Made by a program: the position numbers and the translations under genes. Under the pieces are notes generated by a model. That model searched no databases. It was not told where the DNA came from and was given only the letters and a program-made list of their open reading frames with translations. A stretch of DNA of 64,000 nucleotides from an uncultured Spirochaetia bacterium (lineage in GTDB: Bacteria > Oederibacteriota > PGYV01 > CAYTNY01), in NCBI GenBank assembly GCA_964439215.1, contig CAYTNY010000001.1, positions 33 to 64,032 on the forward strand. The letters are read 5' to 3'. Below, in pieces: positions 15,473 through 32,070 of the stretch; position 1 is the stretch's first letter; every line of letters starts with the position of its first letter.

Positions 15473-15570
15473 TTCAGCGCAGACATCTCCATAAATATTA
15501 TATTTTATTTATTATAACTTTTTTATAAAGTTCAGTAAAGGAGTTTGTGGGAGCAAACGGGAAACATAAT

Positions 15571-15810
15571 TTTTTATTTTTGATTTTTAATTTTTGATTT
15601 AAAACCAAAAACAAAACCATTGCGTGTGCGGTGCGGCGGGGTCTTTTTCGCAGGGAACACGCCCTGTCGTGTTCCGGCCTTTTAATTTTAAAACCCGGAC
15701 AAGCACAGGGGCTTGTCCCTACGAAATAAAAAATCAAAAATAAAAATGTATTTCGTCTTCATCTTTTAAGAAGTTAAATCAAAAATCACAAATAAAAAAT
15801 CAAAAATATC
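15571..15810. repeat. MITE/REP-like composite element: two GC-rich hairpin modules bounded by AT-rich inverted repeats
   Basis: Hairpin A is gggaacacgccctgtcgtgttcc at 15653-15675. Hairpin B is ggacaagcacaggggcttgtcc at 15697-15718. A is flanked by ttttcgcagg and B by cctacgaaa, which are near reverse complements, so A and B are inverted diverged copies. Left flank atttttgatttttaatttttgattt (15576-15600) is mirrored by the right flank aaatcaaaaat...aaaaaatcaaaaatatc (15728-15810). A related copy occurs at 24665-24810. Confidence 0.6.
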
Positions 15811-15817
15811 TTTTATC

Positions 15818-17836
15818 TCACTTATACACCGTACTTTTTATTATTATTTCAACTCTCCGGTTTTTTGCGCGGTTTTCGGATGTGCTGTTGGCCGCTACAG
15901 GATCTGTTTCTCCCTTTCCTGACACCCTTATTCTGCTTTCGTCAATACCCTGCAGATTTACCATAAAGAATTTAACGGCGCGGGCCCTTGCGCCCGACAG
16001 CTTTGTTCTTGTTCCGTATTCGCCCGGATCTTCCCTATTGTCCGTATATCCCGTTACCTTTATATCCGAATCCGGGAAGCTGCCAAGCACATCTTTTATT
16101 TCTTTCAATTTATTATACGCGGATATTTTCACGTTTGCCCTGCCCTGCTCAAATATCGCGTCAGAAGCAAATGTCAGTTTTATTTCTTTTAAAAGAATAA
16201 CCGCGGACTTAACAGGAGCCGCGCCCTTGTTCCCGGGATTGTCATGCGCCGTTAAAGAATAATAATATATTTCTCCTGTTTTCACATATCCGCCGTCATT
16301 TCCTCTGCCGTCCCACACAAGCTTTTCAGGAGGCGCTCCCGCGCCGGATGCTGAAAAAAACAATTCTTTATCATAATCCCAGACCGCCAGCTGCCAGTTC
16401 CTTATGCCGTTCCTGTCAAGGGCCCTCATTCTGAAAACCGCGGGTATTAAAAGAGCCTCATCTTCGCCCGGGCGCAGAAGTTTAGGCTCGGATAAAACAG
16501 AAACACGGGGCGGGGTATTGTCTATCTCCACTTTCACTGTATTTGACTCTGATATTGCCCTTCCGTAATCCACTTTAAGACGGGCGCTGTAAACTCCGTC
16601 AGGCAGAATCCGGCCGTCTTTATCTCTGCCGTCCCATATATATTCAAACCAATCCGGCGAAGACGCCTCAATAACAGCCGCGGGTTTATTTTCATTTTTT
16701 CCAAACACCTCCAGACTCATTTTTTTTATTTTCTCTTTTGAACCCGCATCCGCTTTAAACCGGGCAGTCCCGCTGCGGCTGCCGCCCCGCGAGGAAATAA
16801 CCGGCGGATAAACCGAAAGCTCCGACGGCGGCGCGCCCCAGCTGTAAGCCGCGGACATCCTGTGCGTCCCTCCGAGCTCTCCGTAATGAATAAAAGCATA
16901 ATCAACATCAAACCCTCCGAGTTTTATACCCAGTCCGGCTGTCAGGTGATTGAACCCTCCCGCAGCAAACCCTGTCCTGAACACCGCAATATCATTTATC
17001 GTGTATTCCGCTCCTCCTGAAAAAATAAAGTCATAATCAACGTGAAGATCCATCTGCACCGACAAAAGAAGCGGATATCCGGCTGCCTCAAAAACATCAG
17101 AGACACCCATTGACAGTATCTTGGGCGGTTCAAATGACATATTATTCAGTTTCACTTCGGTTCCTATATTTGATATCGCAACACCAAAACCTATAAGATG
17201 ATGATCATCAAACATCAGCATTTTATACAAGAGCCCCATATCCGCGGATAAATTATAACCCGTATAATCCGCCATACTCTCGGAATTAAAGTTTATCTTA
17301 AATCCCGTGGAAATATATTCATTAAGATATATGCCGTATGCGGCGGAGGCCGAATAATTATAAGGAAAATAAACCCCGTCCGAAAATTCATTCCAGTCTA
17401 CTCCTGAATTCAGATATACAGGATCATATGACGGCAGATCATAATTCCGCGAAAGCCCTCCCGCGCGCAGCATTGAAAAAGAAAAACCCATTTTTGTATT
17501 TTCCATAAAAGGAGAAGGCATTACAAAAGAAATATGCTCCATCCCGATGTCCTCAAACCACATTATATGAGATGCCTGAATTTCATAGGCCCTTACATAG
17601 GAAATACCCGCAGGATTATAATACATGCCGTATGTGCCTTCCGATACAGCCGTATATGCCCCACCCATACCGGCTGCCCCCGCCATAGGGGATATTTTCA
17701 TGAAATTATTTGAAGTGGTGCCCGTAAGCCGGCTGTCAGGCAAAACATTACGCGAAAAAAACACAACAGCCAGAAAAAGCACGCTCCAAAAAACAAGCAC
17801 TGTTCTCATCCGCATTGCCGCCGGTTTCACATTCAT
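15818..17836 (-). CDS. Outer-membrane protein with an N-terminal PorV/UPF0164-like barrel, two FlgD_Ig-like domains and a C-terminal OmpA peptidoglycan-binding domain
   Basis: Signal peptide. N-terminal motif AGAAGMGGAYTAVSEGTYGMYYNPAGISYV matches the PorV-like paralog at 25472 (GAAAGGMGNAY...NPAGLS). Two WDGRDKDGRILPDGVYSARL / WDGRGNDGGYVKTGEIYYY motifs of FlgD_Ig type. C-terminal OmpA_C motif VTGYTDNREDPGEYGTRTKLSGARARAV...NRRVEI. Confidence 0.65.
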   Translation of the reverse strand: MNVKPAAMRMRTVLVFWSVLFLAVVFFSRNVLPDSRLTGTTSNNFMKISPMAGAAGMGGAYTAVSEGTYGMYYNPAGISYVRAYEIQASHIMWFEDIGMEHISFVMPSPFMENTKMGFSFSMLRAGGLSRNYDLPSYDPVYLNSGVDWNEFSDGVYFPYNYSASAAYGIYLNEYISTGFKINFNSESMADYTGYNLSADMGLLYKMLMFDDHHLIGFGVAISNIGTEVKLNNMSFEPPKILSMGVSDVFEAAGYPLLLSVQMDLHVDYDFIFSGGAEYTINDIAVFRTGFAAGGFNHLTAGLGIKLGGFDVDYAFIHYGELGGTHRMSAAYSWGAPPSELSVYPPVISSRGGSRSGTARFKADAGSKEKIKKMSLEVFGKNENKPAAVIEASSPDWFEYIWDGRDKDGRILPDGVYSARLKVDYGRAISESNTVKVEIDNTPPRVSVLSEPKLLRPGEDEALLIPAVFRMRALDRNGIRNWQLAVWDYDKELFFSASGAGAPPEKLVWDGRGNDGGYVKTGEIYYYSLTAHDNPGNKGAAPVKSAVILLKEIKLTFASDAIFEQGRANVKISAYNKLKEIKDVLGSFPDSDIKVTGYTDNREDPGEYGTRTKLSGARARAVKFFMVNLQGIDESRIRVSGKGETDPVAANSTSENRAKNRRVEIIIKSTVYK

Positions 17837-17894
17837 TCGTTCCCCTCTATCATTCTTAATTTGTTTTTACAATTATATCACGGAGAAGAGGGAT

Positions 17895-18000
17895 AAGGGA
17901 ATAGAAACCTGAGTTTTGAGTTTTGAGTTTTGGGAAATAATAGTTCAAAGTTCAAAGATAAGGCAGTTCAAAGTTCAAAAGAACAAAATATAAGCTTTAA
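17895..18000. repeat. Short tandem repeat array in the upstream region of the PorV-OmpA gene
   Basis: Plus strand shows (gagttt)x3, then agttcaaagttcaaag twice separated by 9 bp, with an in-register spacing of 23 bp. On the minus strand (gene sense) this is TTTGAACTTTGAACT x2 followed by (aaaactc)x3, just upstream of a TATAAT-like -10 near 17880. Confidence 0.6.
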
Positions 18001-18214
18001 GTTTGGAATTTCGGAAAGAACAGTTTCAAGTTCCGAGTGTGAAGGGCTGGCGTTTGGTTTGCGGGCCCGGCGTTAAAAACTAAATCCCCCCTGCCCCCCT
18101 TTTTCAAAAGGGGGTAACAACGAAATAATTAAACCAACAGTATAGGTTTTACCAACCATACAATCATCTGAGCATCCGAGCCTCAGGTTTCCATTCCGCA
18201 TTTAAAATGGTTTT

Positions 18215-18245
18215 CATTGAAAATTGATAATTGACAATTGGCAAT
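18215..18245. repeat. Tandem aattgN hexamer repeats (aattga taattga caattgg caatt)
   Basis: Seen directly in the dus-to-ompA-like intergenic region. Confidence 0.5.
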
Positions 18246-18253
18246 TTTTCTCC

Positions 18254-24664: not shown

Positions 24665-24810
24665 GCCGGAACACGGCAGCTTGGTTAAAAATCAAAAGCC
24701 GGAACACGGCAGGGCGTGTTCCCTACGAAAAAAAGAAAAAGAAAAAACTTGCGGGCCTGCGCTTTGTTTTTTTTGTTTTCGCAGGAACAATCCCCTGTGC
24801 TTGTCCGGGT
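24665..24810. repeat. Second copy of the REP-like hairpin element (modules in inverted orientation relative to 15644-15725)
   Basis: ggaacacggcagggcgtgttcc+ctacgaaa at 24701-24730, a half copy gccggaacacggcagc at 24665-24680, and ttttcgcaggaacaatcccctgtgcttgtccgggttttt at 24775-24812. The reverse complement aligns almost base-for-base with 15644-15725 (22-nt identical aaaacccggacaagcacagggg). Confidence 0.6.
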
Positions 24811-24935
24811 TTTTATTCCCAAAACTCAAAAGATCCATATTTTAAAATATTTATCCTCCATAATCCCCTTGACTTATATAATATATATATTAAAATCATA
24901 ACTGTAACAGAAGACATTTTAGGAGGTTTATTTCT

Positions 24936-25460
24936 ATGAAAATATTTAAACTTTGTTTTATTGGTTTTATATTTGTTTTTGCGGCTTCTACGGTTTTCGC
25001 GACAGAAACAGTAACGCAGACAACAACAGAAACAACAACACAGACCGTTACGCCGACAACAACGCAGACAGCCACACAGACAGTCACGGAAACAGCTACG
25101 CCTGACTGGACCCCTACCGGCACATTTACAATAACACCTACCGCCACAATAACACCGACTTTCACATCAACACCCACGCCGCAGCCTAAGTTTTTCGCTT
25201 ACCCCAACCCCGCATATACCAATGAAATAACAATTGCGTATCCTCTGGATGACGCCAAAACTCCGCTGCGGGCAACTATCATAATAAACGCGGTAAACGG
25301 CGAGGAAGCAGGAAGAATATACGATGATACGCCCAACGGATATACCCGTTTTGATATAACGGCTCTCGCAAGAGGAGTTTATTTTTACAGGCTTATAATA
25401 AAATACACGGACAATTCCGAAACTGTTCATAAATATAAAAAATTCTCAGTGGTTAAATAG
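24936..25460 (+). CDS. Secreted Thr-rich protein with a T9SS-type C-terminal sorting domain (Por_Secre_tail-like)
   Basis: Signal peptide MKIFKLCFIGFIFVFAASTVFA. About 60-aa T/Q/P-rich repeat linker (TETVTQTTTETTTQTVTPTTTQ...). C-terminal ~80 aa carry hallmarks of TIGR04183 CTDs (AYPNPAYTNEITIAY ... GVYFYRLIIKY ... KFSVVK). TAGGAGG RBS. Confidence 0.6.
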   Translation: MKIFKLCFIGFIFVFAASTVFATETVTQTTTETTTQTVTPTTTQTATQTVTETATPDWTPTGTFTITPTATITPTFTSTPTPQPKFFAYPNPAYTNEITIAYPLDDAKTPLRATIIINAVNGEEAGRIYDDTPNGYTRFDITALARGVYFYRLIIKYTDNSETVHKYKKFSVVK

Positions 25461-25471
25461 GAGGCCTGCAT

Positions 25472-26410
25472 ATGAAAAAAATCACCGCAGCCATTACGCT
25501 TTTTCTTTTAATATCAACACAGCTTTTTGCTGTAACCGAAATTTACGACGATTCTTCAACCGTAGCGGGGAAATTTCTGGACCTTAAGGCCGGAGCCGCG
25601 GCAGGCGGCATGGGGAATGCCTATATCAACTCTTCCGTTGACGCAGGCGCCGCTTTCTGGAATCCCGCGGGGCTTTCAAATATGATAAAAGAAGATAAAG
25701 AATGGTCAATGTTCTTTTCGCACAATGTCTGGATCATGGATATGATGATAGACCACTTTTCAGCCGCGTCATATTTTCCTGAGTACGGCGTTTTTGCCCT
25801 TAGTGCTTCTTATTTTAACGCCGGCGCAATAGAACGCTATGATATTGACGGGAACGGACTTTATATAAGCAGCGGAACCTATTCGCCCTACTCGCTCATG
25901 ACCGCGCTTGCCTACTCAAATCATCTGGACAAGGACATAGACTTCGGAATAAACCTGAAATATATCTACGATAACATTGACGGCTCTTCGGCCCACGCTT
26001 ATGCCATAGATATGGGGCTCAGATATTTTTCTCCTATAGACGGCTTAAACTTCGGTCTTACAGCCTCTAATTTTTCCGGTTCCCTCAATGGTTTTATTCT
26101 GCCGAAAGAAATGTCTTTTGCTGTTTCATACAGCACTGAAATACAGAAATTCGGAATTGACGCGGAATACAACATAATAGGCAAAGTAAACAACTACCCG
26201 CTGCACAGAATCGGGCTGCAGATAGCCGCTCCTTCGGTATTTACAGCGAGATTCGGCTATCAGACAGATAACACGCTGACGGAAAACGGCTTCAGAAATC
26301 TCACGCTGGGAATAGGGCTGGATTTTGACGGCAGATACATAGATTTCTCCTATGAACCTTTTGGCGATATCGGAAATTCTTTCAAGCTTTCCATCGGCGG
26401 GGGCTTTTGA
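25472..26410 (+). CDS. PorV/PorQ-like (UPF0164/FadL-like) outer-membrane beta-barrel
   Basis: Signal peptide. N-terminal motif GAAAGGMGNAYINSSVDAGAAFWNPAGLS. Alternating beta-strand pattern ending in an aromatic residue. AGGAGG RBS. 12 nt downstream of the CTD-cargo gene. Confidence 0.55.
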   Translation: MKKITAAITLFLLISTQLFAVTEIYDDSSTVAGKFLDLKAGAAAGGMGNAYINSSVDAGAAFWNPAGLSNMIKEDKEWSMFFSHNVWIMDMMIDHFSAASYFPEYGVFALSASYFNAGAIERYDIDGNGLYISSGTYSPYSLMTALAYSNHLDKDIDFGINLKYIYDNIDGSSAHAYAIDMGLRYFSPIDGLNFGLTASNFSGSLNGFILPKEMSFAVSYSTEIQKFGIDAEYNIIGKVNNYPLHRIGLQIAAPSVFTARFGYQTDNTLTENGFRNLTLGIGLDFDGRYIDFSYEPFGDIGNSFKLSIGGGF

Positions 26411-27794: not shown

Positions 27795-30149
27795 CTATTC
27801 TCCTTTGATCTGCTTTCTTAGATCCAGTAAACCGCTGTCTTCCGGAAATGTTTTTATTCCGCGATCCAAAACATTCAATGCTTGTTTTTTGTTTCCTTTT
27901 GTATAATACACATATGCTTCAAAACTATAAAGTTCCGCGGAATTTGTTTCATTTTTTGCTTTTTTGAAGTTCTCCAGTGCTTTTTCATACCTCTTTGTTT
28001 GAAAATAAAACACTCCCAGATTCCTATATATTATACCTTCCTTATAATCATTTTCAAGTAAAAAATCCGCAATGTATTCTGCTTTCCGGTATTCATTTTG
28101 AGTCAGTTTTTCGCCTTTTGAAAGCATTTCAGTAAGCTTAGCCATTGCAATTTCAAACCATTTGCTGTTATCTGATTCTTTCAGCGATTTAAGCAGAGCA
28201 GCAACCCTGCTGTTTTCACTTCCCATTGATACTGCTTTTTTCAGATTTTCACCGGCTTTTTCAAAGATTCCAAGATTAAAATATATTCCTCCAAGATGCT
28301 CAAAAACCCTGGGATTGCTTTCTTCTTTTTCCGCGGCTAAAATAAGATATTTCATTTCATTTTTAAAATCATCAAGATTTGAATAAGCAAGAGCAATATT
28401 ATAAAAGATCATTGATTCCGGCTTGTCCACAGGGAACAAAAGCGCTTTTTTATAAAGTTTTACCGCTTCCTCCGGATAACCCGACGCATTCAGTGCATTT
28501 GCCTGATTTACCATACTTACGGGGTACCATCCTATCAGATCATTATTGTTCTTTGTAAGCCTCGCAAAATCTTCAAACACCCCCCTATACGAATATCTTT
28601 CAAAAACATCCGGACCATAAAGCCTCTGTTTTTTTGATATCCTCAGCAGTATGCCTTTCTGGGAAAAAACAAACCCTTCAGGCGGATGCTCCATTTCAGG
28701 CAGATAGCTGCTCCTGTAAACCGCTTCATCCGGAGAATAAAACCGCACAATCTCAGCAATATTTTCCGCGGTCTTAAACGGCGTCATTTTTATATCACCG
28801 TATCTGCCGGAAAAATCCTCAATACCCCAGTCAAATATAATAAAAGAAGATGTAGCAAACTTAACATCCTTTCGTCTTTTCTGTACTTCCATAATATAAT
28901 ACAGCGGCATAAGGTTATAATCGCCGTCAGCTATATAGACGCCGTCTTTTTCCACGGTCCTTAAAATATTATATCCGTAATCATAGGATAGATAATCCTC
29001 TTTATAATCATTTTTTATGAAATTGGACCAAAACATAAGAACCCCGCCGGCCGCGGCAAGAACAATAAAAAGTTTTTTATACCGCCGGCCCCTTATTCTT
29101 GTGTAAATATACGCTATTCCTGCTGAAATAAAAAGCCCTGCCAGATAGACCGCGGGCATAAGAAAAATATATATCAGCCAGATAACGCCTTCCTGTGTTC
29201 TGTTAAGAAAAACAACCGCAAATATTATAATAAAAGCAGCTGCCGCCAGAAGAACCGATATTCCGCGCGCCCTCTTATAGCCGGCATAAATACCGGCCGG
29301 CAGAAAAACACACAGCACCGAAAAATTCACGGCAAAAAGATATAAAAAATGCTTTACCTGGTATAAATACACATCAGCGGAAGGCGTGACAGGATTAACA
29401 TATCCCCGGCGCAGAACAACCCATAAGAATCCGGATAAGCCGGAAGAAGGATCGCCCCAGTTAAAAACAGGATCAGAAGATGACCTGATAACAAGAAATA
29501 AATACGGCGTGAGCCCTGCCAGAAAAAACAGCGCGGAAATAATATAATTTTTCCCTGATGTCTTTTTGCGGAAAATATATAGACAGGAAGCAAAAACCGG
29601 CGCTAATATTATCATGCTGGGCCAGTGATTGGAAAGGGACAAGCCATAGATATAGGATGACATATATATATATACAGGCGTCTTTGCGCTTTTTGCCTTA
29701 AGCATGGAAAAAATAATAACCGCAAGAAACAGCAGGTTCAGCATATAAATACTTCCCTTTGCCTCTGTTCCCTGATTCCAGAAAATATAGGAAAACGCCG
29801 TTAAAACCGCTCCCGCCCCCGCCCATATGCGCATACCGCTTCCGAAAATATTTATATTAAGCATGATCAGTATTCTGTAAGTCATATAAAGTATTATCAT
29901 CCCCAGAAACGAAGAAAAAACATTCATTCGGAACGCCGGAGACGCAAAAGAAGGCAGGCAGGCGATCTTCCCTGCCATTGTGTGCAGAGGATAAGCCGGA
30001 GGATGCGCTATGCCCAGAGTGTATGCCGCAGCCGCGGTCTCGGGCGAATCATTGTTTTTAAACACAGGGTTCATCGTGTGAAGATAAACACCGAATATAA
30101 AAACCACAACAACCACAGCCGCCGTATATGTTATTGGCTTTTGCTTCAT
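27795..30149 (-). CDS. DUF2723-family (TMEM260/GT-C-like) polytopic membrane protein fused to C-terminal TPR repeats
   Basis: N-terminal motif AYTLGIAHPPAYPLHTMAG typical of DUF2723. About 11 TM helices over the first ~400 aa. C-terminal ~300 aa of TPR-like repeats. Confidence 0.6.
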   Translation of the reverse strand: MKQKPITYTAAVVVVVFIFGVYLHTMNPVFKNNDSPETAAAAYTLGIAHPPAYPLHTMAGKIACLPSFASPAFRMNVFSSFLGMIILYMTYRILIMLNINIFGSGMRIWAGAGAVLTAFSYIFWNQGTEAKGSIYMLNLLFLAVIIFSMLKAKSAKTPVYIYMSSYIYGLSLSNHWPSMIILAPVFASCLYIFRKKTSGKNYIISALFFLAGLTPYLFLVIRSSSDPVFNWGDPSSGLSGFLWVVLRRGYVNPVTPSADVYLYQVKHFLYLFAVNFSVLCVFLPAGIYAGYKRARGISVLLAAAAFIIIFAVVFLNRTQEGVIWLIYIFLMPAVYLAGLFISAGIAYIYTRIRGRRYKKLFIVLAAAGGVLMFWSNFIKNDYKEDYLSYDYGYNILRTVEKDGVYIADGDYNLMPLYYIMEVQKRRKDVKFATSSFIIFDWGIEDFSGRYGDIKMTPFKTAENIAEIVRFYSPDEAVYRSSYLPEMEHPPEGFVFSQKGILLRISKKQRLYGPDVFERYSYRGVFEDFARLTKNNNDLIGWYPVSMVNQANALNASGYPEEAVKLYKKALLFPVDKPESMIFYNIALAYSNLDDFKNEMKYLILAAEKEESNPRVFEHLGGIYFNLGIFEKAGENLKKAVSMGSENSRVAALLKSLKESDNSKWFEIAMAKLTEMLSKGEKLTQNEYRKAEYIADFLLENDYKEGIIYRNLGVFYFQTKRYEKALENFKKAKNETNSAELYSFEAYVYYTKGNKKQALNVLDRGIKTFPEDSGLLDLRKQIKGE

Positions 30150-30201
30150 AAAATCCCCTTTATATCCCGGATAACCGCAGGCTTCAAATGCGGTCCGGTT
30201 T

Positions 30202-32070
30202 TTATTCCGGTCCTTGTTCTGTTTTAATTATTGCTTTTATATAAGGATCCATTTTTCCGTCATCACCGTTAAACCGAATATACTTTTCAGCTGTTTTTTT
30301 CGCGTTTTCTGTATCACCGGCCGCCATATACGCGGTTATAAGGTTTATATAAGCCGTTTCATAGTGCGGCGCCGCAAAAACAGCGGTTTCAAGATGCTGT
30401 ATCGCTTCTTTGAGGCTGCCGGTGCCCTCCGCGGACAGCTGCCCGGAAAGCGCGCCGAACATATTATTCACTTCAGGACAATACGGATTTATTTCCAGGT
30501 CTTTTTTATAATATTCATAGGCTTTTTTCGGATACCCGGCCTGCCGGTAGGCTTCCGCCGCATAATAATACTGAGCAACATCTGTCTGCGGGCAAAGCTC
30601 AACGTTATTCTGCTCAACTATACGCTCATAATAATTTATAGCGCTTTTATAATGCCCGCTTTTGACCAGACGGTTGGCCTGCTTAAGATATATGTTTGAC
30701 GCGGCCGCTTTTCCGTCCGCAGCCGCCGAAAACATTATCAGAAAAGCCGATGCAGCAGCTCCGGCTATGGCGCCTTTTTTTCCTATGCCGGCGCTTTTTA
30801 ATGACCGCTCTTTCTTATATGCCGACACAAAAAATATGAGTATAAAAAAATAAAGTGTTGTCGCCGGAATATTGTAAAAAGTATTAAACAGCGAAGCGCC
30901 CAGCAGCGCAGCAGCGCCCGAAACCGCTCCAGCAAGAAAAGGATCGCCTCTTTTTCTTATATAAAAACTCCTGTAAGCGGAATAAAACAATACCGCAACA
31001 ACGGCAAGAAAGGCCCCCAGCCCTAAAATACCCGTTTCCGAGGCTATAAGTATATAATTCTGATGAGGCATCCAGGTCACCACATAATCATATTTATCGT
31101 TTTTTGGATCATTTAAAAGTATTCCCTGGTAATGCGGAAAATTCAGTCTGTACATACCCATGCCTTTGCCTTTAACCGGTGATTCTTTGATCATGAGCCA
31201 TCCGGCTTCCCACATAAGAAACCTGTGTATCACAGACCGCTGCTTGCCTTCAAGAAATCTTTTTGATTCTGCCAAAACAGCCGGATATACGGCGGCGCCG
31301 CCGATAATAAGCGCAAGCAGCGCGGCGGCAGCTGCCTTTTTGCGCCGTTTAATGAACATTTTCACATGACTGCCTTTTAATGTCAGCCATAAGATTGCAA
31401 ACAAAGCCATGCCGCCCGCAAAACCTATGTAAGTACCCGCCACTTTTGCGTATAAAAATACCGCGAACATAACAACAAACCCCGCACCCGCGGCAGCCTT
31501 ATGTTTTTTTCCCAAAACCGCGTAAGACAGCAGAAGAAACATCGGTATAAGAAGCTGTGACGCAAAAAAATTAGGATTGCCGATGGTGCCCATGGGCCGC
31601 CCCTGAAAATTTGTGTTCCAGCTGAAAATATCCGCATCAAATCTCTGAGCAAGCCCGTAAACCGCCATTATCACATGGACAAAAAACACTAAAAACAGCA
31701 TTCTTCTGCCGTCATTTTCATCGGAAACGTTCCAGATAAAATAGGCCCCGAAAATAAAAAGTACAAGTTCAAAAGCATACTTGGAGGCGATCTGCGCATT
31801 CATCGCCCATGCAACGGAAAGAACCGCGATAACCGCATATAAGAACGCGGGAAAAAGAGCAGGATTGATTTTTACCTCAAATCCCCCTCTGCGCCGCGCT
31901 TCAAGAAAATACAGCAAAAAGAAAAAAGGCAGAAAAAGACGCGCGGCCATAAGCTGGGCAGGGCCGAAAGGATCAAAAAACGGCTGAAAAAAAACCACGG
32001 GGATAAACAGAATTATGAAATTAAGAATATTTTTTCTTAAAAGAATTAACAGCCTGAGATTCAATATCAC
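30202..32070 (-). CDS. O-antigen ligase (Wzy_C)-domain membrane protein fused to C-terminal TPR repeats
   Basis: Multi-TM N-terminal region with Wzy_C hallmarks (GNPNFFASQLL; MPHQNYILIASETGILGLGAFL). C-terminal ~200 aa TPR repeats (KSAINYYERIVEQN...AEAYRQAGYPKKAYEYYKKDLEINP). Confidence 0.6.
   Translation of the reverse strand: MILNLRLLILLRKNILNFIILFIPVVFFQPFFDPFGPAQLMAARLFLPFFFLLYFLEARRRGGFEVKINPALFPAFLYAVIAVLSVAWAMNAQIASKYAFELVLFIFGAYFIWNVSDENDGRRMLFLVFFVHVIMAVYGLAQRFDADIFSWNTNFQGRPMGTIGNPNFFASQLLIPMFLLLSYAVLGKKHKAAAGAGFVVMFAVFLYAKVAGTYIGFAGGMALFAILWLTLKGSHVKMFIKRRKKAAAAALLALIIGGAAVYPAVLAESKRFLEGKQRSVIHRFLMWEAGWLMIKESPVKGKGMGMYRLNFPHYQGILLNDPKNDKYDYVVTWMPHQNYILIASETGILGLGAFLAVVAVLFYSAYRSFYIRKRGDPFLAGAVSGAAALLGASLFNTFYNIPATTLYFFILIFFVSAYKKERSLKSAGIGKKGAIAGAAASAFLIMFSAAADGKAAASNIYLKQANRLVKSGHYKSAINYYERIVEQNNVELCPQTDVAQYYYAAEAYRQAGYPKKAYEYYKKDLEINPYCPEVNNMFGALSGQLSAEGTGSLKEAIQHLETAVFAAPHYETAYINLITAYMAAGDTENAKKTAEKYIRFNGDDGKMDPYIKAIIKTEQGPE

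Follow-up and report, generated by a model that had tools for sequence, protein, structure and literature searches.

A PorV-family barrel joined to Ig-like and OmpA-type domains in Goldiibacteriota and related bacteria is a candidate wall-anchored docking protein

We analyzed a stretch of 64,000 nucleotides (hereafter, the window) from an uncultured bacterium deposited as a member of the Spirochaetia (assembly GCA_964439215.1, contig CAYTNY010000001.1), with attention to one gene on its reverse strand whose product we call the fusion protein. A preliminary description, made from the sequence, had read this product as a PorV-like barrel followed by two FlgD_Ig-type domains and a C-terminal OmpA domain. 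That observation is correct in every structural part: the fusion of the three modules is real, and it is conserved in full-length orthologues. The open reading frame (ORF) is uninterrupted, and its start codon, an ATG at 17836, is preceded 6 nt upstream by the ribosome-binding site GAGGGG (17842-17847). An AlphaFold2 model, which the description had proposed as a check, was built on an alignment of the fusion protein with 22 orthologues (alignment A1, 23 sequences) and had a mean predicted local distance difference test (pLDDT) score of 78.6. It contained the barrel, Ig and OmpA modules, in an order that runs from a leader helix (residues 7 to 30; the orthologues have equivalent leaders) through a conserved N-terminal segment and the barrel to two beta-sandwiches and the OmpA_C domain (Table 1).

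Table 1. Features of the fusion gene, its flanking spacers, and the associated genes in the window and in homologous loci (L numbers). aa, amino acids; CTD, C-terminal domain; DAP, diaminopimelate; REP, repetitive extragenic palindrome; TRF, Tandem Repeats Finder.
Feature	Position	Strand	Basis
Complete gene, 672-aa PorV-like barrel, two Ig-like domains, and OmpA_C	15818..17836	-	ORF list, Pfam and NCBIfam matches, 22 full-length orthologues
Putative signal peptide region, about residues 1-35	17732..17836	-	hydrophobic TVLVFWSVLFLAVVFF after basic N-terminus
Conserved N-terminal plug/hatch segment, residues 39-83, GTTSxNFxKI...GMGxAY...YNPAG	17588..17722	-	alignment A1
14-stranded FadL/PorV-type beta-barrel, residues 84-333; long extracellular loop L2 at 125-158	16838..17587	-	
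Ig-like domain 1, residues 338-450, FlgD_ig/CHU_C-like, motif WDGRDKDGRILPDGVY (401-416)	16487..16825	-	Pfam FlgD_ig, model
Ig-like domain 2, residues 466-547, motifs WDGRGNDGGYVKTGEIY (508-524) / WDGRGNDGGYVKTGEIYYY	16196..16441	-	second FlgD_ig stretch, model
Predicted OmpA_C peptidoglycan-binding domain, residues 551-667; D599 and R617 as predicted DAP-binding pair	15836..16186	-	
Upstream spacer, 417 bp, lineage-specific	17837..18253	-	sequence, TRF
Extended -10-like TGATATAAT, upstream spacer	17872-17880		
Period-7 arrays, upstream spacer	17910-17932, 17942-17979, 18216-18246		TRF
GC hairpin, upstream spacer	18094-18114		
Downstream spacer with REP-like GC hairpins (15644-15740)	15473..15817	-	inverted repeats I1-I3, I6, I7
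Inverted AT-rich heptamer arrays, 34 nt, bracketing the hairpins	15569-15602 and 15774-15807		
174-aa mini-protein: signal peptide, Thr-rich linker (TETVTQT...), type-A-like CTD ending KFSVVK	24936..25460	+	
Free-standing 312-aa PorV/PorQ-family barrel, paralogue of the fusion barrel	25472..26410	+	NF033709, 124.4 bits
CTD-only mini-protein genes in homologous loci	L045 7278-7994; L046 1536-1907; L047 5624-6004; L050 151-528; L051 1681-2088		

The N-terminal half of the fusion protein resembles the PorV/PorQ family. The NCBIfam model PorV_fam (NF033709) matches residues 40 to 332 with 111.1 bits (cutoff 90) and is covered from position 1 to 325 of 326, and a profile of the protein and its 22 orthologues matches Flavobacterium johnsoniae PorV (6h3i_F) with an E value of 4.8e-17 over the N-terminal 220 positions. 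Counted in the model, the barrel has the 14 strands of a FadL-like barrel, with the N-terminal segment in its lumen, which is the structure that characterizes this family. The N-terminal plug segment is the most conserved block of A1 (T41, A52, N74, P75, A76, and G77 are invariant) and aligns with the N-terminus of PorV in the profile search. The window also encodes a free-standing paralogue of the barrel, which BLASTP aligns with the fusion protein from end to end (residues 8 to 328 with residues 1 to 307, 24% identity, E = 1e-12); the signature AGAAGMGGAY...NPAG, which the preliminary description had noticed in both proteins, falls inside this alignment.

The two middle domains are matched by Pfam FlgD_ig (PF13860) in two stretches, with 30.1 bits against a cutoff of 27 and thus a small margin. 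They correspond to the two beta-sandwiches of the model, the second of which has a pLDDT of about 85 to 93 and contains W508, D509, and G510, invariant in A1; with Foldseek, the Ig region matches tandem Ig/FN3 structures. The C-terminal domain is matched by Pfam OmpA (PF00691) with 68.4 bits (cutoff 27.2, residues 562 to 660) and has the alpha/beta OmpA_C fold in the model. Its D599 (TD motif), R617 (LSxxRA motif), and NRRVE motif (N659-R660-R661-V662) are invariant in the 23 sequences and align with their canonical counterparts in YiaD and OprF, and the profile matches dozens of OmpA_C domains in the PDB. We take D599 and R617 to be the residues that contact DAP, after the published structure of OmpA from Acinetobacter baumannii.

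The architecture, which the preliminary description had suggested looking for elsewhere, recurs in many genomes. The 22 orthologues (639 to 671 aa, 34 to 49% identity) align over the whole length, including the conserved linkers WGxPP and VEIDNTPP, and those that carry a name are proteins from Goldiibacteriota metagenome-assembled genomes (MAGs). About 30 further full-length clusters came to light when 1.84 billion representative proteins were searched exhaustively with a profile. When GTDB species genomes were scanned with a query made from four closer sequences, the barrel and Ig part was found in 22 loci belonging to Goldiibacteriota, candidate division FCPU426, and MAGs labeled "uncultured Spirochaetia," and 21 of them run on through OmpA_C (tblastn; full architecture in loci L003 to L026). 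Several genomes have two or three fusion paralogues. An Elusimicrobiota-like lineage has the full fusion too (L045, where the neighboring GatB is closest to Elusimicrobiota sequences); the genomes of Endomicrobia and other Elusimicrobia from the GTDB scan contain the barrel only, matching residues 1 to 334.

Intermediate forms exist as well, in which a barrel and Ig part of about 390 to 525 aa has no OmpA domain (such as P0024, P0028, and P0029). The Ig-Ig-OmpA_C cassette (profile positions about 320 to 650) is found in hundreds of proteins of Rectinemataceae spirochaetes and Elusimicrobia. Because this C-terminal cassette is common to hundreds of long (FlgD_ig)n-OmpA proteins, the fusion looks, from sequence comparison, as if a widely shared periplasmic cassette had been added as a module to a PorV-family barrel. 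The long proteins (family P0051 to P0198; for example, P0067 and P0215 from Rectinemataceae and P0072 from Elusimicrobia) have 1,000 to 5,700 aa and no barrel, and consist of many FlgD_ig/CHU_C/Big_13-type Ig repeats that end in the cassette. Both these giants and Leptospira Lsa66 share the C-terminal Ig-Ig-OmpA_C cassette with the fusion protein, but they have no PorV-like barrel, their N-termini being further Ig repeats or unrelated sequence. With the Lsa66 model (NF053608), the fusion protein scores 54.5 bits against a cutoff of 700, over the cassette only (residues 348 to 665). We rejected a closer kinship with Lsa66, given that only the cassette is common and no barrel has been described in Lsa66.

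Clustering of neighboring genes in 24 loci yielded a "family" that is united only by a CTD of about 85 aa. Its members are otherwise unrelated, including PQQ/BamB-like and NHL propellers and an IgGFc-binding-like protein, and all of them end in a domain of the FlgD_ig/Por_Secre_tail/CHU_C type, several scoring above the cutoff of TIGR04183, the type A sorting domain of T9SS, the type IX secretion system. A CTD gene adjoins the fusion gene in nine homologous loci (L008, L014, L017, L045, L046, L047, L049, L050, and L051). Three of these hold Goldbacteria-type paralogues in same-strand operons with CTD genes, separated by gaps of about 20 to 270 nt (L008; L014, where the CTD genes number four or more; and L017, with one additional PorV-like gene). 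Among the seven distant full-length members whose flanks were examined, five (L045, L046, L047, L050, and L051) have a gene for a CTD-only mini-protein directly upstream, with a gap of 6 to 27 nt or an overlap of 4 nt. These mini-proteins consist of a signal peptide and one type-A-like CTD in 123 to 238 aa, and their E values with a hidden Markov model (HMM) of the CTD are about 1e-12 to 1e-16. In L049, the gene for a 489-aa CTD protein overlaps the start of the fusion gene by 4 nt, and L048 has no CTD neighbor. The loci were centered on barrel genes, so this linkage comes from a biased sample and is not an unbiased test of enrichment. The repeated arrangement, with the CTD gene directly upstream and on the same strand in independent lineages, is not easily ascribed to chance.

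In the window itself, the CTD gene nearest to the fusion gene lies more than 6 kb from it. It encodes a mini-protein of 174 aa that scores 20.2 bits with TIGR04183 and 21.7 bits with Pfam Por_Secre_tail, both just under the cutoff; its E value with the CTD HMM (4e-20) is not independent evidence, as the HMM was trained partly on the same sequence. The free-standing barrel gene begins 12 nt downstream, and the pair is kept in HGW-Goldbacteria-1 (L001 and L002; in L001, at 1281-1790 and 330-1268). The order of a CTD gene followed by a free-standing barrel gene is found in the window (24936-26410), L001, L034, L035, L037, and L043. The pair in the window resembles a minimal unit of a CTD protein and a docking barrel.

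We propose, with slightly more confidence than doubt, that the fusion protein is a wall-anchored docking barrel that would both tether the outer membrane and immobilize CTD proteins. It probably fastens the outer membrane onto the wall, perhaps together with surface proteins docked on the barrel. The 14-stranded barrel, of the PorV/PorQ family within the FadL superfamily, would be seated in the outer membrane. Because an even number of strands puts both termini of a barrel in the periplasm, its C-terminus would emerge there, and the Ig-Ig-OmpA_C tail would be periplasmic. An Ig domain is roughly 4 nm long, and the two in tandem would make a spacer of roughly 8 to 9 nm, a length seemingly suited to reach the peptidoglycan, which OmpA_C is predicted to bind noncovalently via Asp599 and Arg617. 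In this way, the protein would staple outer membrane and cell wall together. On its extracellular face, the barrel probably docks T9SS-type CTD proteins, by analogy with PorV-PorU, PorQ-PorZ, and PorP with its type B cargo, and the platform carrying such proteins would be immobile and anchored to the wall, not a diffusing shuttle. FadL-derived barrels of Bacteroidota repeatedly serve as docks for surface proteins, as in PorV with PorU and cargo, PorQ with PorZ, PorP/SprF with type B CTDs, and BamG with BamH (PMC9143113, PMC12611786).

The closest known counterpart is in Bacteroidota. In Porphyromonas gingivalis, PorE forms the bridge between PorP and peptidoglycan, in a PorE-PorP-PG1035 complex; in F. 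johnsoniae, six of ten porP-like genes adjoin porE-like genes, and it has been proposed that nonmobile CTD proteins are fixed to the wall by complexes of the PorP-PorE kind (PMC9143113). The expectation in the preliminary description that PorV-type barrels are not normally tethered to peptidoglycan does not hold for the wider family, given that PorP is a related FadL-family barrel tethered through PorE (PMC9143113). By analogy, the fusion protein is best read as, in effect, a single-polypeptide equivalent of the PorP-PorE complex. Both would couple a 14-stranded FadL-family outer membrane barrel to a peptidoglycan-bound OmpA_C domain, both have an Ig-like domain before OmpA_C (for PorE, PMC9143113 and PMC12204202), and in both the barrel docks a surface CTD protein (proposed by analogy for the fusion protein) and is encoded beside CTD partners (in homologues of the fusion gene). 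They differ in that the barrel and the anchor are one chain here and two proteins in Bacteroidota. The fusion barrel belongs to the PorV/PorQ branch, with no match to Pfam PorP_SprF (PF11751) at E<=1. PorE (PG1058) is a lipoprotein with tetratricopeptide repeats (TPRs), a beta-propeller, a CP-like domain, and OmpA_C. The fusion protein does not have the TPRs, beta-propeller, or lipoprotein anchor: neither TPR nor propeller was matched in Pfam or NCBIfam, and OmpA_C and the preceding Ig-like domain are the only traits in common with PorE. The partner CTDs of the fusion homologues look like type A (TIGR04183), in contrast to type B cargo, and the hosts, Goldiibacteriota and Elusimicrobiota-like bacteria, lie outside Bacteroidota.

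Other known proteins share fewer features with the fusion protein. Like PorV (LptO) and PorQ, it passes the NCBIfam subfamily model, and its homologues are gene-linked to CTD proteins, but its barrel is about 100 residues shorter. Because this barrel is covalently extended by Ig-Ig-OmpA_C, the protein cannot act as a freely diffusing shuttle, unlike PorV and PorQ. Like the tethers OmpA and OprF, it has an outer membrane barrel at the N-terminus and, at the C-terminus, an OmpA_C domain, predicted to be periplasmic, that keeps the canonical residues for peptidoglycan binding. However, its barrel is plugged and of the FadL/PorV type, with 14 strands in the model, in contrast to the 8-stranded OmpA barrel (no family of the OmpA membrane domain was matched in Pfam), and two Ig-like spacers stand in place of a short Pro-rich hinge. 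BamG of the Bacteroidota BAM complex differs in having no peptidoglycan-binding extension and in being bound to BamA, whereas the fusion gene is not linked to bamA, which lies about 32 kb away in the window. We also considered BamP as a peptidoglycan anchor paired with the FadL-like BamG and rejected it, as BamP does not bind peptidoglycan.

Several observations weigh against our proposal. No CTD gene lies within 6 kb of the window copy or of most Goldbacteria "core" orthologues, and the nearest CTD gene in the window is already paired with its own free-standing barrel. The core orthologues are instead flanked by housekeeping genes (Dus, MurA, and dnaA). No T9SS core gene (SprA/Sov, PorK/L/M/N, or PorU) was found in the 64-kb window or the fetched loci, which are too small a sample of the genomes to count as a test. 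The fusion protein scores 40.1 bits with the PorV equivalog model (NF033710, cutoff 250) and 40.4 bits with that of PorQ (NF033711, cutoff 220); because these cutoffs are missed by a wide margin, its sequence places it in the PorV/PorQ family at the subfamily level, and not as an orthologue of the PorV or PorQ of the T9SS. In addition, its extracellular loops are much shorter than those of F. johnsoniae PorV, and therefore the surface that binds CTDs may not be conserved. The "cargo tether" of the preliminary description is supported by homologues whose genes share operons with those for CTD proteins; the window copy has no CTD neighbor, and for this copy, we infer the docking role.

These points lead to the strongest alternative, in which the fusion protein is purely a staple between outer membrane and peptidoglycan, analogous to OmpA or Pal, the barrel is an anchor only, and the CTD-linked copies are specialized paralogues. 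The conserved core copy would fit it, situated as it is among housekeeping and envelope genes (Dus and MurA in the window, dnaA in L003), and so would the invariance of the predicted peptidoglycan-binding residues. The gene order in L048 (ExbB/ExbD/TonB_C, M23, CsgG/LpoB, fusion gene, AsmA) and the AsmA-like or PASTA genes downstream in L046, L050, and L051 point the same way, as does a 2025 analysis in which PorE is itself a tether between outer membrane and peptidoglycan, and may be primarily that (PMC12204202). However, the plug of the PorV family and loop L2 are kept and highly conserved, which would be needless in a mere anchor, and without an interaction between barrel and CTD it is hard to see why, in five of seven distant lineages, the fusion gene should be so tightly linked in an operon to a gene for a CTD-only mini-protein. 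We consider a pure staple possible, if on balance doubtful.

A FadL-type channel for hydrophobic substrates that is anchored to the wall by chance appears improbable. The profile search retrieved PorV, with no FadL chain among the best 60 of 87 PDB matches, Pfam Toluene_X (PF03349) had no match at E<=1, and the genes linked to the fusion gene in the examined loci include CTD genes but no genes of lipid or aromatic catabolism.

The preliminary description had also placed the gene next to a flagellar and chemotaxis cluster and suggested a link with motility, which raises the possibility of a flagellar outer membrane component, such as a wall-anchored partner of a ring or bushing. Dus is the upstream neighbor of the fusion gene and MurA the downstream one, and a gene for a methyl-accepting chemotaxis protein (MCP) and the fliF...flgE cluster follow further downstream. 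The cluster is indeed near and on the same strand, with fliF-fliG-fliH-fliI... and the MCP gene 5 to 6 kb away in the window, L001, and L006, but MurA and the MCP gene intervene. In addition, OmpA_C scores well against the structures of MotB, MotS, and PomB, and Goldbacteria have flagellar genes, whereas sister clades with barrel-only homologues reportedly have none (PMC7031533). On the other hand, the order Dus/fusion gene/MurA/MCP/fli is kept only in the closest relatives, L001 and L002 (HGW-Goldbacteria-1), and in L006; the orthologue adjoins dnaA in L003 and unrelated genes in the remaining loci. Because of this restriction, the flagellar neighborhood is lineage-specific and is no evidence of function. 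The full fusion is also present in the Elusimicrobiota-like MAG, from a phylum reported to have no flagellar genes (PMC7031533). The MotB/PomB stator equivalogs score far under their cutoffs (54 to 76 bits against 250 to 301), and in place of the inner membrane helix with a plug at the N-terminus of a stator protein, the fusion protein begins with a signal peptide and then a barrel. FlgD_ig is the name of a fold: no FlgD family was among the Pfam matches or the best 25 of 50 NCBIfam matches, only the Ig fold is common, and the fusion protein has no N-terminal region of FlgD. We therefore regard a flagellar role as very improbable.

The least probable alternative, to the point of being negligible, is an artefactual ORF created by a frameshift or an assembly join of PorV-like and OmpA-family genes, a refutation the preliminary description had itself named: one orthologue, an exceptional case, is split into two ORFs of 457 and 192 aa (L019, 2952-4821, in an FCPU426 MAG; either a pseudogene or the result of a frameshift or an error of assembly), but the ORF in the window is continuous, and more than 30 independent assemblies show the same architecture and length, with conserved linkers.

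The fusion protein's internal Ig domains bear a weak, local likeness to the cargo CTDs, confined to the WDGxDxxG...G.Y motif (E of about 1e-3 in hmmsearch; 1e-5 over 20 to 38 residues in BLASTP). Given this extent, we do not claim them as bona fide CTDs. A protein in L042 (9858-10823) joins the N-terminal domain of an anti-sigma factor to a FlgD_ig-like C-terminal domain, and therefore FlgD_ig-like domains in these genomes are not all secretion signals. In L008 (2845-7974), an apparent operon comprises genes for an extracytoplasmic function (ECF) sigma factor, an anti-sigma factor, a Spy-like periplasmic chaperone, a 554-aa CTD protein, and a fusion paralogue, which suggests that this one paralogue is under envelope-stress control. 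Downstream of the pairs of mini-protein and fusion genes, a PASTA-domain or AsmA-like gene is often found.

A second paralogue subfamily, with about 33% identity to the fusion protein, has its own fixed synteny. Its gene (match at about 6001-7900 in L004 and L021 to L026) is accompanied by genes for an S49 peptidase, an 800-aa PD40/Tricorn-like beta-propeller, IclR, TGT, and YajC, in the order S49 peptidase, propeller, paralogue, IclR, TGT, YajC; this arrangement is kept in up to seven loci, and in six for most of these neighbors. The order of propeller and then OmpA_C recalls tolB-pal.

The window belongs to a diderm with lipopolysaccharide, given that genes for BamA, LpxC, LpxD, and LpxI are within it. 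Genes for TMEM260-like (protein O-mannosyltransferase-like) proteins with TPRs and for Wzy_C (O-antigen-ligase-like) proteins with TPRs recur 4 to 12 kb from fusion genes in several lineages (window, 27795-32070; L012, 172-2052; L045, 1-1230; L004, 21785-21947). This recurrence may reflect glycosylation of Thr-rich surface proteins, or merely that these are large gene families.

The spacers on both sides of the fusion gene contain repeats. The preliminary description had seen an elaborate tandem-repeat control region upstream of the gene; heptamer arrays do exist there, but they are not conserved, and in HGW-Goldbacteria-1 the Dus stop codon overlaps the start of the orthologue, so that no upstream spacer is present. 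In the downstream spacer, whose predicted RNA fold is stable (z = -3.7), two GC-rich hairpin modules, GGGAACACGCCCTGTCGTGTTCC and CCGGACAAGCACAGGGGCTTGTCC (at 15566-15808), recur inverted and rearranged at 24685-24813. No Rfam family was matched in the flanking spacers, and at the end of the fusion gene a simple scan for terminators gave none. The flanking repeats look like intergenic elements of the REP or miniature inverted-repeat transposable element (MITE) type rather than a conserved control region. Period-7 tandem arrays occur in the 64-kb window only in the two spacers that flank the fusion gene (downstream, at 15569-15600 and 15776-15807), which is an oddity.

Public MAG annotations already include proteins of this architecture, as "PorV/PorQ family protein" or "OmpA-like." Literature searches for PorV with OmpA and FlgD, and for PorV with peptidoglycan, OmpA-like, or fusion, found no description of it and no experiment on it, and only one of the Goldbacteria papers found names type IX secretion, and that among its references alone. 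The fusion protein bears on how the outer membrane is tethered to the wall in diderms outside Proteobacteria and on the origin of the FadL-derived PorV/PorP docks for surface proteins. In poorly known, uncultured phyla, one chain would unite two functions that are split in Bacteroidota between PorP and PorE. The most interesting lead is that related fusions are paired in a strikingly regular way with CTD-only mini-proteins. As a tentative and rather unlikely extension, Goldiibacteriota and Elusimicrobiota-like bacteria might have a minimal surface-anchoring module without the canonical T9SS of Bacteroidota, made of a wall-tied PorV-family barrel and a dedicated CTD protein, often a cap or adaptor consisting of a signal peptide and a CTD. 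Such a unit, both outer membrane-wall tether and docking post, might represent the ancestral role of PorV/PorQ/PorP, the mobile T9SS shuttles having come later. If docking does not occur, the fusion protein would still be a previously undescribed class of OmpA-like tether between outer membrane and wall. If it does, the barrel and its mini-protein would offer a simple two-component system for the study of CTD recognition, and docking would be evidence that the pairing of CTD and barrel is older or more widespread than the T9SS of Bacteroidota.

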